64,000 bases of DNA from a virus. Shown here piece after piece: positions 10,714 to 59,719 of the stretch. The translations under genes were made by a program, and so were the position numbers. The DNA is taken from positions 40,669 to 104,668 of the IMG/VR virus record IMGVR_UViG_3300037459_000160, one strand, 5' to 3'. The number at the start of each line of letters is the position of its first letter. Within the stretch, counting starts at the first letter, position 1. Under the pieces are notes generated by a model that was not told where the DNA came from, made no database searches, and worked only from the letters and a program-made list of their open reading frames with translations.

Positions 10714-11949
10714 ATGTTGCCCGAGGGAATCCAACAGATCGAAGCCCGCGAAGTGTTGCGGACGTTGCCCGAGAACGTTACAGGTAAAAAGATTGCCTTA
10801 CGTTTGACGGGTGGGGTTGGCGATGCTGTGATTGCAATTGGGGGCGTTGCGTATGCGTTGCGTAAAGAGGATTGCCAAATTACGGCGGCCGTAATGCCTC
10901 ACCAAATTCCGTTAATGTTGGAAATGGTGGGCGTTGATAAGGCAGTTGAGGGGAGATTACTTAACCGTCCCGACATTTGCCAAAAATACGATTCTATCGT
11001 TTCATTCTCGGGCGTGTTCAATTCCCATCGGGAGTTACGGGCGGGAGGGTATTACAACCTTGTGAGCGACCGTACGGGCCTCAGGGTGGGGCCCGGCAAG
11101 TTTGCCTTTGAGCCAATTGCTCAACCGCGTGCGAGCGAGCGTACGGGCGTTCTCGGTCGTATACCGTACAAAGTGCGACGGGTAGCGATGCACCCAGGTT
11201 CAAGTAACCCGAATCGTTGTTGGGTATCCGAGCGTTGGCGAGAGCTTGCGTATGAGTTGCGGGACCGAGGGTGTAAAATCCTTTGGTTAGGTACTCGCGA
11301 TGAGATGGGGTTTAATGCCGAGGGTATTTCCAAGATGAGCGACGAAACCGAGGATTTGGTTTTACAAGCCGAAGTCCTCGGGAATTGCGATTACTTCATT
11401 GGCAACGATTCGGGTTTTGCTCACATTGCGGGCGTGTTGAATGTGCCCGGTCTTGTGCTGTTTTTTAGTACAGCGGCCGAGGATGTAATACACGCATACC
11501 CAAGATTGAAAGGTGTTGACGTTTACGAACGGTCAAACGTTAAGCCGAGCCGAAGTTTGAGCCAAGGTTGTAAGGTTGCCGAGGTAGCACAACAGGCGAT
11601 GAGTGTTGCCGATGTTTTGAAGGCAACGGGCCTTTATTCGGTTTCCCCGAAACGCGGTTCGCGTACGGAGGGTAAAGCCGTGGCAATAAAACTCGCGATT
11701 CTCGGGCAACCCGAAAATCCAACTTTAACCTTGTTGCGGGATTTCCTTATCAAGCACAATTACGAAGTGAAGCTATTGAGAAACGCCCCGACGCATGGGA
11801 TGGAATTCGATTGTTTTATTTTATTGACCGGCAGCCGGTGCCGTTTGCAGGTAAAGGGTACGAGTGTTGCCGTTGATATCTCCAACCTTGAGAACGTTAG
11901 GCGAGCAATTCGCGAGTTGCTCCTAAGGGGCGATGATGAGCAAACTTAA
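10714..11949 (+). CDS. Glycosyltransferase family 9 (heptosyltransferase-like)
   Basis: GGVGDAV, MHPGSS...RCW..ERW..LA, FIGNDSGFAHIAGVL..P motifs of GT9. Confidence 0.85.
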   Translation: MLPEGIQQIEAREVLRTLPENVTGKKIALRLTGGVGDAVIAIGGVAYALRKEDCQITAAVMPHQIPLMLEMVGVDKAVEGRLLNRPDICQKYDSIVSFSGVFNSHRELRAGGYYNLVSDRTGLRVGPGKFAFEPIAQPRASERTGVLGRIPYKVRRVAMHPGSSNPNRCWVSERWRELAYELRDRGCKILWLGTRDEMGFNAEGISKMSDETEDLVLQAEVLGNCDYFIGNDSGFAHIAGVLNVPGLVLFFSTAAEDVIHAYPRLKGVDVYERSNVKPSRSLSQGCKVAEVAQQAMSVADVLKATGLYSVSPKRGSRTEGKAVAIKLAILGQPENPTLTLLRDFLIKHNYEVKLLRNAPTHGMEFDCFILLTGSRCRLQVKGTSVAVDISNLENVRRAIRELLLRGDDEQT

Positions 11950-40636: not shown

Positions 40637-40674
40637 CCGCCTGGCTATGGACGCGGGCCCCGAGGTTCCTGGTT

Positions 40675-55660: not shown

Positions 55661-56126
55661 GGAATTCGCCGAGGGCGAGGAAGCCGAGTACGCCCAATCG
55701 TTGATTGATTCTTGGGCCCATGTTCAAAAGGAAAAATACCAGACCGGCGAGGATGAAAAACTCCTACTTGCGTCTTTGGATTTGCTGGCCGGCGAGCCAG
55801 AGGTTAAAAAGGGCACGCTTAAAATCTTTGGCGAAACCCACATTGCTAAGATAACGCGAAAGATCAACGCCAATTACCCACGGGAACGTGGGGCCGAACA
55901 CCCACTGAGGAAACTGTTAGGAACCTTTGAAAAGCTCGCCAACATGATCTCGGTTGAGTACAAAGAAAAGGGCAGCCAAATCCAAGCGTTGATGGATCGG
56001 CTCGCGACCGGTGATCTAAAGTTAGATGATGACGCCGAGATTGCCGAGGCCCTCGCGACAGTGCGAACCGAGAAAGCGGGCAAGCCCTCAGTTGCAATAC
56101 AAGAGCGGATTGATACCCCCGCATAG
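55635..56126 (+). CDS. Hypothetical protein
   Basis: SD GAGGGAG; 163 aa. Confidence 0.65.
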   Translation: MMKNPITLREFAEGEEAEYAQSLIDSWAHVQKEKYQTGEDEKLLLASLDLLAGEPEVKKGTLKIFGETHIAKITRKINANYPRERGAEHPLRKLLGTFEKLANMISVEYKEKGSQIQALMDRLATGDLKLDDDAEIAEALATVRTEKAGKPSVAIQERIDTPA

Positions 56127-56146
56127 GAAAGGTAGCGTTTGCGATT

Positions 56147-56446
56147 ATGTCGAAAGTATTGGAACAAACCGAACTTACTCTTGCGGTTGCGTATTACCAT
56201 TTGGGTAGATCGTTGAGTGACCTTTGGGGCGATGTTGGAAAAGATCAAGACAAATTTAGTTCGGAAGTTGCCGGCACGTTGTCAATTACCGAGTTGAGTG
56301 AGGCCGAGGAAATACGGGATTCGTACCGCATGTTTGAGGGCGTTGATCCGCCTGATGAGCGGGCAGATATGTTTACGCCCCTTTGGCGGCTTTGGTGCGA
56401 GATAGGGTTTGAAAGTCCTTGGTACGATTGCCCCGACGATATTTAA
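56147..56446 (+). CDS. Hypothetical protein
   Basis: 99-aa ORF preceding the non-coding block. Confidence 0.6.
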   Translation: MSKVLEQTELTLAVAYYHLGRSLSDLWGDVGKDQDKFSSEVAGTLSITELSEAEEIRDSYRMFEGVDPPDERADMFTPLWRLWCEIGFESPWYDCPDDI

Positions 56447-56449
56447 GGA

Positions 56450-56660
56450 TAGGTCTAAACTCCCGCCGTTGGGTTCCCGACCTAAATAGGGAATAATGTT
56501 CGGCTCACGGGCGGCCCTTTAGCTCACCAAAACCCCGGCGTGAATTATCAAAGCAATGGGGCAGGTAAGGCGTTTTGGGTTCGTAAATCGGACGGCTACA
56601 AAAGAGGCTCCGAGGGGTGAAGCTAGCCCCCACACGCCTAGCGTACGCCGAGCAAACCGA
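56450..56660 (+). ncRNA. Putative structured ncRNA
   Basis: Nested stems CCGCC/GGCGG, TTCCC/GGGAA, CGGCGT/ACGCCG, AGGCGT/ACGCCT; possible pseudoknot TAGGTC/GACCTA. Confidence 0.4.
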
Positions 56661-56676
56661 GAGTTACCGGAAAGGT

Positions 56677-56797
56677 GGTTCGGTAGTGTATTGGTAATGA
56701 CTCGTTGCAAGCAAAAATACGAGTTAGGCCGCACCCTCGCCCGACAGAAAATCGGGAACGTTACGAGCAAGAGTCGGTTCAAATCCGGCCCGAGCCT
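56677..56797 (+). ncRNA. tRNA-like RNA 1 (121 nt) with D-loop hairpin insertion and extended anticodon arm
   Basis: Acceptor GGTTCGG/CCGAGCC, U8A9, D stem GTGT/GCAC, T arm GTCGG-TTCAAAT-CCGGC. Confidence 0.7.
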
Positions 56798-56807
56798 CTT
56801 GAGTTAT

Positions 56808-57021
56808 ACGCGGGTAGTGTAAAGAAAATCGGTCAAGTCTAGCGAACGGGTTTGCTGATTTGAACGATACTAGCGATGAGGGAAGCCCGGTTGTACGTCA
56901 AAAACCTCATGGGGTTTTAGGTTGCAACCTTGGTAAGTGTGAGCCGGGCGGAACAAATCGACAGTTGGTAGCATAACTCCCTTTTCGGGTTTAGGTGTTG
57001 GTTCAAGTCCAGCCCCGCGTA
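56808..57021 (+). ncRNA. tRNA-like RNA 2 (214 nt, UUU anticodon-like) with about 140-nt D-loop insertion
   Basis: Acceptor ACGCGGG/CCCGCGT, U8A9, D stem GTGT/GCAT, anticodon arm AACTC-CCTTTTC-GGGTT, T arm GTTGG-TTCAAGT-CCAGC. Confidence 0.7.
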
Positions 57022-57033
57022 CTTTTAATTCCA

Positions 57034-57049
57034 GTGAACCCGGTTGCAC
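57034..57049. repeat. 16-bp quasi-palindrome copy (GTGAACCCGGTTGCAC)
   Basis: Intergenic, immediately after tRNA-like RNA 2. Confidence 0.85.
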
Positions 57050-57073
57050 AACTCTAACTTTGAGGGCGAGAAG

Positions 57074-57265
57074 ATGTACAAGCGAAAGTTTGCTGAATTC
57101 ATTAAAGCGTGTGATCATGCTAAACGTAGCGGGGCGGCAATCGCGGTTCACAATCCCCAAGCGTTAGGGGATAATTATGAGGAATTGGTTGAGAGCTTGA
57201 GCCAAATAGCGGAACGCAAGATTGGGTTATTAGTTACATTTCCCGCTAATACGAGGGCGAAATGA
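57074..57265 (+). CDS. Small hypothetical protein
   Basis: SD GAGG; P..LGDNYEELVESL motif. Confidence 0.6.
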   Translation: MYKRKFAEFIKACDHAKRSGAAIAVHNPQALGDNYEELVESLSQIAERKIGLLVTFPANTRAK

Positions 57266-57678
57266 GTGAGCCCGATGACAACATTGACCCCGATGCGTAT
57301 GATAGGCTCATTGACCGATTCGCCGATAAGGAAGTTGAGGACGATGAGCCCAAGGAAGAAAAGGGCAACAGGCAGGGCGAGACGGGTTGGGTATCGCAAT
57401 GGCGAATACTCAAGATGATTGAGGCAACCGATAAAAAATCAATGGCCCTTGGCGACATTGCCCGAGAGCTTGATATTGACCGCAACAGCGATCGAATACA
57501 AAAACCTCTCGGGCAACTCTTGCGGGGTGATAAAATCACGCAAGCGGTAGGGCAAGACCTAAAGGGAGCGATTGGAAACGTTTACACGGTCAAGCGACCA
57601 CGCAAGCCCACGGGCCGGGAGCGGGCCGCCAGGGATATCGAGGATGAGCCAGGCTATGGAATCCAACTTGACGATTGA
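57262..57678 (+). CDS. Winged-HTH protein
   Basis: Q.RIL..I.......L.DIAREL......I...L..L...G.I pattern. Confidence 0.65.
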   Translation: MSEPDDNIDPDAYDRLIDRFADKEVEDDEPKEEKGNRQGETGWVSQWRILKMIEATDKKSMALGDIARELDIDRNSDRIQKPLGQLLRGDKITQAVGQDLKGAIGNVYTVKRPRKPTGRERAARDIEDEPGYGIQLDD

Positions 57679-58264
57679 TGAGCTTAGAGAGCAATTAGAG
57701 CAACGCGAGGTTCAAGTAAGTGATTTGATGGATTTGCTTTATCCCGAGGGGGCAGCCCCGAGCGATTCCGACCCTTTAACGTGGCGGGAAATTGCCGAAG
57801 CAAAGGGCGTAGATATTAAGACTTTACAAAACGTTAAGGTAAAGCAAAGCGAGAAAATCGGCGAGCTTTCCCGAGAGATTGATTATAACGATACCAAGGT
57901 AAAGGAAATACAGTGGGCCCATGAGGTTAATTATGCTCGCCTGGCAAGCAAGCTCAACAAGACCCGCGAGAAATCCACGCCAAAGCGTGTTGAGTATCTG
58001 GAAACCCGCGTTGAGGAATTATGTAAGCAGTTAAGCGAGATTGACTCCGAGCTTGACGCGGAACGCTCGGCATTGAATGACCTTGAGTGTGAGGTACAAC
58101 ATGAAAAAGACTGTTTACAATTTGAGGAAGGCGACGTTTTACGCAAACTTGAGGCGGCCTTGTTGGATATAAAGCCGAGAGATTGTTACAATATGCGAGG
58201 ATTCCGGCCCGATTGGGTACTGAGTGAGGCCCTTTATAGACTTTGCGGGAGGTACGATATATGA
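57656..58264 (+). CDS. Coiled-coil hypothetical protein
   Basis: Heptad repeats; likely start ATG 57656. Confidence 0.6.
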   Translation: MESNLTIDELREQLEQREVQVSDLMDLLYPEGAAPSDSDPLTWREIAEAKGVDIKTLQNVKVKQSEKIGELSREIDYNDTKVKEIQWAHEVNYARLASKLNKTREKSTPKRVEYLETRVEELCKQLSEIDSELDAERSALNDLECEVQHEKDCLQFEEGDVLRKLEAALLDIKPRDCYNMRGFRPDWVLSEALYRLCGRYDI

Positions 58265-58647
58265 CCGTTACCACGCCCCCGGCAGCGTTTTCCGATCTTG
58301 ACGCGGCTAACCGGTATATCGCTGATCTTGAGGCCGATATGGCGTTAAAGCCGGATAAATACGAGCTTGCGAATCAAAAGCAACTCGTTATCAATCTGCA
58401 AAAGGTAACGCAAAAGCTCAAAATGAGGTTGGCGGAAACAAAAGCCGATTTGGAGGGCCGCGTACAGCAACTTGAGAGCGAGAAAGCCGATTTGATCGAC
58501 GCATTGGCCCAAGAGGTTGAGGAAAATTCGACCGTTCGCGAGGCCGTACAAGAATTCGGCCTTGCGGAAAACCCGGCCGGCCCGAGGCCGAAAAACAAGG
58601 CTGAAAGACGCGGGCAGCCCGAACAGAGACCCAAAAAGAAAAAGTGA
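58261..58647 (+). CDS. Coiled-coil hypothetical protein with basic tail
   Basis: SD GGAGG; ATGA coupling. Confidence 0.65.
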   Translation: MTVTTPPAAFSDLDAANRYIADLEADMALKPDKYELANQKQLVINLQKVTQKLKMRLAETKADLEGRVQQLESEKADLIDALAQEVEENSTVREAVQEFGLAENPAGPRPKNKAERRGQPEQRPKKKK

Positions 58648-58653
58648 AAGTAA

Positions 58654-58896
58654 ATGTACGTTGAGCTTGTTGACGACTTGAACGGGTACAACGTATTGGC
58701 CTCATTTGAGGCCGACGTTGTACCGGCCCCCGGCGATGTAATCGTTTTCTTTACCTCGCCCGATGAGCCCCGTGAGCGAGGCACGGTTACCAAGCGAAAG
58801 TTTGTAACGCATGGGCCTGATTTGAGTTACCGGGTCGATTGCATAATTGAGCTAGCCGATGTTGAGCTAGCCGATGTTGAGGGTTACACGGTATGA
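58654..58896 (+). CDS. Small hypothetical protein
   Basis: VP.PGD.I...V..R pattern; ATGA coupling to the next gene. Confidence 0.6.
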   Translation: MYVELVDDLNGYNVLASFEADVVPAPGDVIVFFTSPDEPRERGTVTKRKFVTHGPDLSYRVDCIIELADVELADVEGYTV

Positions 58897-59261
58897 CCGA
58901 ACAACTAACCGCAAAGCGTTGGTGGGCCTTGTTTCATACTCCGTTATATGAGATTGGCAAAACGCACGGCCGGCTTATCTGGACCCAAAACGGCTTTCGC
59001 CGAAAGATTGGCAACAACAAGTATCTTGAAATACTCCCCTTACTGTTCGGGCGGGCACGCTTGCATATCGGCCGTATTGAGCCCCTCTTTGATGGGCAGT
59101 ACGATGACGGTTGGTGATACGATGACCCTGAGGCCGCGTGTACGGCCTTACTAGAGTGGGATGGGGAAGGCGAGCCCGAGGGATGGGTGAGGCACCCAAT
59201 GAGCAAGAGGTACCGACCCGATGGGACACCCGAAAGCGAATATGTCCAAACCGAGCCGTGA
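58893..59261 (+). CDS. Putative selenoprotein (122 aa, in-frame UGA at 59115-59117); alternatively a nonsense-disrupted gene
   Basis: The frame continues after UGA as YDDPEAACTALLEWDGEGEPEGWVRHP...TEP to 59261 and overlaps the next gene; SECIS-like hairpin downstream. Confidence 0.65.
59129..59150 (+). promoter_or_regulatory. Candidate bacterial SECIS element
   Basis: 8-bp stem TGAGGCCG/CGGCCTTA with loop CGTGTA, starting 11 nt after the UGA. Confidence 0.6.
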
Positions 59262-59436
59262 TTGGTTTGATATTTTTGCATGTAAACCTTGGCAACGAGG
59301 CAGGCCCCCGGTTACCTTTTTCGTAAGCCCTCAAAGCCAATACAATATGACGGTACATGGCGACGGTTCCCAAGTTGTCTTTGTAAACGCCAGCGGGCAC
59401 GAAAGGCGAGTTACTCTTTTCATTGAGGATTTGTAA
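59242..59436 (+). CDS. Small hypothetical protein
   Basis: Likely start ATG 59242 (MSKPSRDWF...). Confidence 0.5.
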   Translation: MSKPSRDWFDIFACKPWQRGRPPVTFFVSPQSQYNMTVHGDGSQVVFVNASGHERRVTLFIEDL

Positions 59437-59446
59437 GGGCGAACAA

Positions 59447-59719
59447 GTGATCCAACAAAAGTGCATAGGTTGCGGGAGCAACAAATTGAAGTTTGAGGAA
59501 ACCTTGAAGCAATCGGCTGATTTCCTTGAGCCTGTTAAAGGGGCTCCGTACCCGACGTTGAACGTACGCGAGTATTTGATATTTGATTACGTTTGCCAGA
59601 GTTGCGGCATACATTGGGGCGAGACGTGCGAGGTACGCGACCATGTACCCAAGGATGAGGTTGAGATTGATTCAAGTACAGGGCTTCGCGTTGACGATCC
59701 AACGCAATACGGGTATTGA
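59447..59719 (+). CDS. Small zinc-ribbon protein
   Basis: CIGC...CQSC; start uncertain. Confidence 0.55.
   Translation: MIQQKCIGCGSNKLKFEETLKQSADFLEPVKGAPYPTLNVREYLIFDYVCQSCGIHWGETCEVRDHVPKDEVEIDSSTGLRVDDPTQYGY

Follow-up and report, generated by a model that had tools for sequence, protein, structure and literature searches.

The question raised by a short gene in a phage contig from a marine sediment metagenome is whether a virus of bacteria can draw on selenocysteine (Sec), the insertion of which is commonly regarded as a trait of cells. The window analysed here is a stretch of 64,000 nucleotides of that contig (IMG/VR record IMGVR_UViG_3300037459_000160, positions 40,669 to 104,668). Within it, the ORF 58893-59117 closes at a TGA after ...QYDDGW, beyond which the frame continues without a stop through 47 codons, up to a second TGA (Table 1). 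An earlier note on this DNA interpreted the in-frame UGA and the SECIS-like hairpin behind it as the signals of a phage-encoded selenoprotein, and comparison with related genes now lends support to this interpretation through the Cys column, the covariation of the hairpin and the selection acting downstream. Judged from the sequences, 58893-59261 very probably encodes a phage selenoprotein that would use a bacterial-type SECIS and the SelB of the host. This reading is the most likely one because the UGA is kept at a Cys column in 27 other contigs, together with a co-varying hairpin of SECIS type.

Table 1. Features of the putative selenoprotein gene (positions in the window).
Feature	Position	Strand	Details
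Complete gene, predicted to be recoded	58893..59261	+	122 codons including one predicted Sec-UGA; true stop TGA 59259-61
In-frame UGA, read as selenocysteine (predicted)	59115..59117	+	residue 75, motif W-U-Y
C-terminal 47 codons, translated only with UGA decoding	59118..59258	+	dN/dS 0.17 at dS 1.5; codon-position identity 0.75/0.76/0.42 (TGA-type genes)
SECIS-type hairpin	59129..59150	+	stem 59129-36/59143-50 (8 bp, one G-U); apical loop 59137-42 CGUGUA

The positions originally given for the UGA, the extension, the stem, the loop and the overlap with the next gene all hold. The start codon overlaps the stop of the upstream gene as ATGA, and the 3' end of the extended frame overlaps the next ORF, the start of which lies at 59221 or 59242. 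Taken alone, an open extension of 47 codons is weak evidence, as about 0.1 would be expected by chance at 50% GC (our own arithmetic); homology is decisive for the extension because relatives align across the TGA. Conservation across the family is highest within the C-terminal 47 codons, which encode W-D-G-x-G-E-P-x-G-W-x-R-H-P...R-R-P-x-G-x-P-x-x-E-Y. The database entry for the gene, the sole match in a word-indexed protein search, is a truncated call of 74 residues only. A separate assembly of the probable source run contains the stretch in identical form at ~18x with 0 differences; as it derives from the same data, it is no second sample. A second run, with a small share of matching words, gave no coverage of the gene. 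An exact 9-nt direct repeat, TACGATGAC, is present at 59100-59108 and 59118-59126, flanking GGTTGGTGA with the predicted Sec codon. A recent 18-nt duplication was considered as the origin of the repeat and rejected, for the repeat mirrors the protein motif Y-D-D-x-W-U-Y-D-D, which is written in other codons in relatives.

Among isolated phages, tblastn matched Caulobacter phages (Bertelyvirus C1, C2, CcrBL9 and others) and Brevundimonas jumbo phages, in which the homologues are single annotated, uninterrupted ORFs spanning both halves of the window gene. In the alignment with these phages, the UGA column is occupied by an invariant Cys within D-R-W/Y-C-Y, and the W-C-Y motif given in the earlier note for similar phage proteins is a real one in the aligned relatives. 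The Cys forms have 30-36% identity to the window protein over the aligned region, and the fold-defining motifs common to Cys and Sec forms are W-C/U-Y ... W-D-G-x-G-E-P-x-G-W-x-R-H-P ... G-R-R-R.

The same column was followed through larger collections. A profile scan of IMG/VR returned 80 loci, making 81 viral loci with the window; the column holds TGA in 23, TGC in 32 and TGT in 18 (Cys in 50 of the 81), Asp in 3, Glu in 1 and Tyr in 3. One further TGA-type phage contig, found in two MAG bins, came from a profile search of bacterial-genome contigs in which no other contigs matched, and four more came from a metagenome scan. The TGA type thus totals 28 distinct contigs, 27 besides the window, with a local GC of 0.38-0.72. 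A full HMMER search gave 1,450 cluster representatives at E <= 1e-3, and Cys stands at the UGA column in 67 of the 89 non-TGA representatives that were aligned. The residue at this column is not essential to every member of the family, because about a quarter of the non-TGA members have something other than Cys there. Seven loci (L018, L031, L041, L050, L052, L060 and L084) have Asp, Glu or Tyr in place of Cys or Sec at the W-x-Y column, the three Tyr forms making up one well-supported clade, and the residue is therefore dispensable in some lineages.

Two side observations concern particular relatives. The Cys forms L099-L101, from a groundwater metagenome, have the unusual GWVRH and DGTPESEY signatures of the window protein, and these shared signatures suggest that the lineage of the window may lie near a transition between Cys and Sec. 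L085 (CADEFQ010000013.1) and L086 (CADEFN010000011.1) have an identical TGA-type gene and hairpin on contigs of ~83 kb, which were binned into MAGs of different phyla, a proteobacterium and Gemmatimonadetes; at least one of the two bin assignments is probably a binning artefact.

The part of the gene that follows the UGA evolves as protein-coding sequence. For the 41 codons that follow the UGA in TGA-type genes, dN/dS is 0.17 at a dS of ~1.5, which is the mark of purifying selection, and identity by codon position in this part is 0.75/0.76/0.42. The family-invariant residues fall in the part after the UGA, and all of them are intact in the window copy. On the tree, the TGA forms cluster, with 1-2 changes and 0 of 500 label shuffles as low, which indicates long retention of both the UGA and the hairpin. 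These comparative patterns show the UGA to be conserved at the Cys column and the downstream part to be translated.

The hairpin forms the second line of evidence. Folded alone, that of the window has a free energy of -12 kcal/mol (z = -3.4, 1 of 200 shuffles as good). As in bacterial selenoprotein genes, it lies within the coding region. The distance from the UGA to the stem is 11 nt for the window copy and 12 nt for most of the family, and that to the loop is 19 and 20 nt, respectively; the apical loop is likewise small, and the stem sequence is free while pairing is kept. The expectation that independent UGA-containing homologues would keep the hairpin is borne out by the 27 other contigs, which have it in the same register and with compensatory changes. 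Covariation was measured on 23 ungapped TGA-type sequences, for the helix formed by nt 16-23/28-35 counted from the U of the UGA. This helix is paired in 84.8% of cells, with both-sided changes in 6 of 8 pairs, and its covariation score is 0.424; shuffles gave 0.187, none of 500 reaching the observed value, and slid controls gave 0.07-0.15. The most variable pair (columns 27/36) occurs as GC 8 times, CG 7, UA 3, AU 2, GU 1 and UG 1, with one mispair; it joins two third-codon positions, so selection on the protein cannot explain its covariation. In contrast, Cys forms have on average 1.2 contiguous pairs in the hairpin register, against 5.9 in TGA forms, and their loop sequences are unrelated. 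Caulobacter phage C2 gp253c, CcrBL9 gp257c and Brevundimonas phage Kabachok KABACHOK_01010 are such Cys-form relatives, which share the protein motifs of the window gene and differ in having TGC or TGT for TGA and no hairpin in register.

The loop begins at nt 23-25 from the U of the UGA in 28 of 28 TGA-type genes, and G-U occupies loop positions 2-3 in all 28; the loop types are GGUC (20), AGUU (3), CGUGC (3), CGUGA (1) and CGUGUA (1, the window). Across the family, loops measure 4-6 nt and stems have a median of 7 contiguous bp. The general model of the bacterial SECIS (bSECIS) calls for a 3-9 nt loop, an upper stem of 4-16 bp, an MFE <= -7.5 kcal/mol, a G at one of the two leading loop positions with G or U as the next nucleotide, and 16-37 nt from UGA to loop (PMC13188914), and the window hairpin agrees with every constraint quoted there. 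In E. coli, 11 nt separate the UGA from the element, whose loop nucleotides G23/U24 and a bulged U (U17) in the upper stem contact SelB (PMC8659212). Unlike the E. coli fdhF SECIS, the stems of the window and of the TGA-type family are continuous, no bulged U comparable to U17 being conserved in them, and the loop G-U lies 1-2 nt farther from the UGA than G23/U24; the bulged U is an E. coli-specific feature and stands outside the general bSECIS model. Rfam gave no match over the whole window at the gathering threshold, and no match, including to an Rfam SECIS family, in 56000-59600 at E up to 5. The comparisons within the family and with published elements show selection on the hairpin at the level of RNA structure, and this structure conforms to the rules for bacterial SECIS elements.

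Given a UGA that is read and a hairpin that is selected, it may be asked whether the copy in the window still works as those of its relatives would. It could belong to a selenoprotein family and yet be decaying, its CGUGUA loop binding SelB poorly and the product being mostly a 74-residue fragment. The window is sister to L008 (support 96/85), the loop of which is the canonical GGUC, so the CGUGUA loop is a derived variant, which may differ from GGUC in efficiency; it is also the sole 6-nt loop among the 28. CGUG-type loops are found in four other members as well, L015 and L081 elsewhere in the tree and L096 and L102, the nearest metagenome relatives of the window, and the variant is therefore recurrent. 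Decay is furthermore at odds with a stem that is intact (8 bp, -12 kcal/mol), with the G-U retained at loop positions 2-3, with a loop that satisfies the bSECIS consensus, and with an intact downstream frame in which every family-invariant residue is present. We consider decay of this copy quite unlikely.

A different doubt concerns the residue that enters at the UGA and the factor that brings it in, which we infer to be Sec and SelB, respectively. In a programmed readthrough independent of SelB, a near-cognate tRNA (Trp, Cys or Arg) would decode the UGA while the hairpin slows the ribosome or hinders release factor 2, giving a fixed ratio of short to long product without any need for selenium. 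The comparative data leave room for such a process, as they show that the UGA is read and the hairpin selected and not which residue enters; moreover, no Sec machinery was found in the phages searched. Searches of the window contig (104.7 kb, 84% complete) for tRNA genes at default settings, for tRNA-Sec and for SelB were all negative. Records of five further TGA-type phages, of which three have a completeness rating of 100%, likewise yielded neither SelD nor a SelB wing domain, and no match to tRNA-Sec above the threshold. Two of the records, G001 (the L012 record, 166 kb) and G003 (the L061 record, 176 kb), carry large tRNA arrays, among which no UCA anticodon was found; the sub-threshold matches of G001 and G003 to the tRNA-Sec model (30-40 bits) were rejected, as they belong to class II tRNA-Ser, Leu and Tyr. 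Against SelB-independent readthrough, the UGA falls exactly on the Cys column, which is the signature of Sec/Cys exchange, and the fixed spacing and the G-U at loop positions 2-3 in 28 of 28 are details that a generic roadblock hairpin would not need. We know of no bacterial readthrough element of such a form, and hold this explanation to be very unlikely.

With selenocysteine as the preferred reading, phages that have no tRNA-Sec, SelB or SelD of their own must obtain the Sec factors from the host. Host inference from the DNA polymerase and the portal protein found no isolated phage closer than ~27% identity. Weak hints only point to a host. The Gemmatimonadetes MAG bin that contains one of the two identical TGA-type contigs has selB (343 bits) and selA (524 bits), both over the curated cut-offs, and the proteobacterial bin with the other has neither selA nor selB; the binning is doubtful in both cases. 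In a control panel, Caulobacter vibrioides, the host of the Caulobacter Cys-form phages, gave no selA match. Two tRNA-shaped genes upstream of the window gene, missed at default settings, were detected by ARAGORN with the intron option only: a tRNA-Ala(cgc) with a 26-nt insert at 56677-56797 and a tRNA-Lys(ttt) with a 141-nt insert at 56808-57021. Neither has an Rfam match. As UGA decoders they were rejected, the candidate anticodons being CGC or GAA for the one and UUU for the other; as neither has a UCA anticodon, no link to UGA decoding is evident.

That the TGA is merely a nonsense mutation, a sequencing error or the scar of a pseudogene, for which a single base change from the Cys codons TGC or TGT would suffice, is refuted by its presence in the same column of 28 contigs from many samples at a dS of ~1.5 with a downstream dN/dS of 0.17, as well as by the separate assembly that is identical at 18x; the TGA is not unique to one assembly, and it was such uniqueness that the earlier note had named as speaking against its reading. 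That TGA alone, and never TAA or TAG, is found at the column is a weaker argument than it may seem, as the same is expected under a nonsense-mutation model, in which a single base change can turn a Cys codon into no stop other than TGA; the case rests on the conservation and on the downstream selection.

Stop-codon recoding is known in some phages, and a genome-wide reassignment of TGA to sense, of the code 4 or 25 type, was considered as a rival. The phage recoding reported in PMC9523058 concerns TAG. As had been claimed at the outset, UGA is an ordinary stop elsewhere in this genome: of 125 long frames in the contig, 56 end in TGA, the commonest true stop there, and TGA is the true stop of 16 of the 22 complete TGA-type genes, so the code has not been reassigned. 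Since TGA also ends TGA-type genes, one gene would contain two UGAs, the first decoded and the second ending translation. There is, in addition, no UCA-anticodon tRNA among those found, and a contig-wide scan for an in-frame UGA followed by a hairpin gave no other in-frame candidate, and genome-wide reassignment is likewise refuted. The only two other UGA-plus-hairpin candidates of that scan were judged to be chance: one at window 11063 (+), which falls within the longer ORF 10714-11949 in a different reading frame, and one at window 39684 (-), which is antisense to longer + strand ORFs.

According to the selenoprotein reading, a ribosome arriving at the UGA would find the hairpin recruiting host SelB that carries Sec-tRNA(Sec); selenocysteine would be inserted, and translation would run on to the terminal TGA, yielding a selenoprotein of 122 residues. 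The phage would contribute the cis signals only, that is, the UGA and the SECIS, with SelA, SelB, SelD and tRNA-Sec coming from the host. In a cell without these factors, synthesis would end with a 74-residue fragment that has no conserved C-terminal half. It may be speculated, as an idea we regard as unlikely, that UGA and SECIS act as a gate, with full-length protein made only in a host with active Sec machinery and enough selenium; the second suggestion of the earlier note, that selenium-dependent readthrough senses the state of the host, is speculative in the same way. An accessory function would then be coupled to the identity of the host or to its redox or trace-element state, the 74-residue fragment might itself be functional, and Sec might bring a catalytic gain to a new, phage-specific selenoenzyme fold.

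The gene resembles those of bacterial selenoproteins, with E. coli fdhF as the prototype, in having the in-frame UGA at a Cys-homologous position and a hairpin whose conserved loop dinucleotide is G followed by U (PMC13188914; PMC8659212). It differs from them in being a phage gene, in sitting on a contig where the Sec factors searched for, tRNA-Sec and SelB, are absent, and in belonging to no known selenoprotein family. The glutathione peroxidases (GPx) of molluscum contagiosum and fowlpox viruses are the only accepted viral selenoproteins in a review of viral recoding (PMC8310308). Like these, the phage protein would be a virus-encoded selenoprotein dependent on host Sec machinery, and fowlpox virus, too, has its SECIS within the coding region. 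On the other hand, the poxvirus proteins are captured cellular GPx of eukaryotic viruses with a eukaryotic SECIS, whereas the window gene belongs to a bacterial virus, has a bacterial-type SECIS and represents a phage-specific family without a cellular enzyme counterpart.

Contact between phages and the Sec system has been hinted at before by huge phages, for which tRNA-Sec genes were predicted and no selenoprotein gene was named (PMC10747093); the TGA-type phages present the converse arrangement, with the gene and without tRNA-Sec. A study of trace elements in the GOS data reported that selenoprotein families contained hardly any viral sequences, or none (PMC9402790), and a 2026 review of the prokaryotic selenoproteome makes no mention of phage or virus (PMC13188914). 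Our phrase searches of the literature, the coverage of which excludes subscription journals, found no published phage selenoprotein. If the reading is true, viruses of bacteria exploit the host machinery for the 21st amino acid, and the family is a new selenoprotein family without recognisable fold relatives. It would also supply a simple host-range marker, as carriers should infect Sec-using bacteria only. Gene callers systematically truncate Sec-UGA genes of this kind.

As to the protein itself, an AF2 model built on a 111-sequence alignment reached a pLDDT of 84 and a pTM of 0.78. An N-terminal helix, specific to the window protein, is poorly predicted; strands are modelled at 28-31, 34-39, 43-50, 54-61 and 72-76, the last of which ends at the predicted Sec75, and they are followed by a helix at 79-88 and a well-ordered Arg-rich C-terminal segment. 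The window protein had no match in Pfam, PHROGs or NCBIfam, phrog_24748 (function unknown) matching some Cys forms only. A sequence profile search of the PDB gave no match, Foldseek against PDB and BFVD and a wide VIA-align search returned nothing above noise (best Z 6.1), and a protein atlas gave unnamed clusters only. The family is uncharacterised and, with no Pfam match, no PDB sequence match and no clear fold match, probably not thioredoxin-like. The window protein has no second Cys near the predicted Sec (motif W-U-Y-D). A single Sec or Cys between aromatic residues suggests a nucleophile or redox site, to be read with the quarter of non-TGA members that have no Cys at this position. We would tentatively take it for a small accessory protein of the early/accessory gene region, either redox-active or dependent on a nucleophile.

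Neighbour analysis revealed no conserved partner gene, and the two largest neighbour clusters were discarded as antisense shadows of the gene itself. Two genes downstream, the ORF at window 59423-59719 (98 aa) contains two Cys pairs, CIGCG ... CQSCG, which suggest that it may encode a small zinc-ribbon protein, and beyond this ORF lies an array of diverged paralogues.
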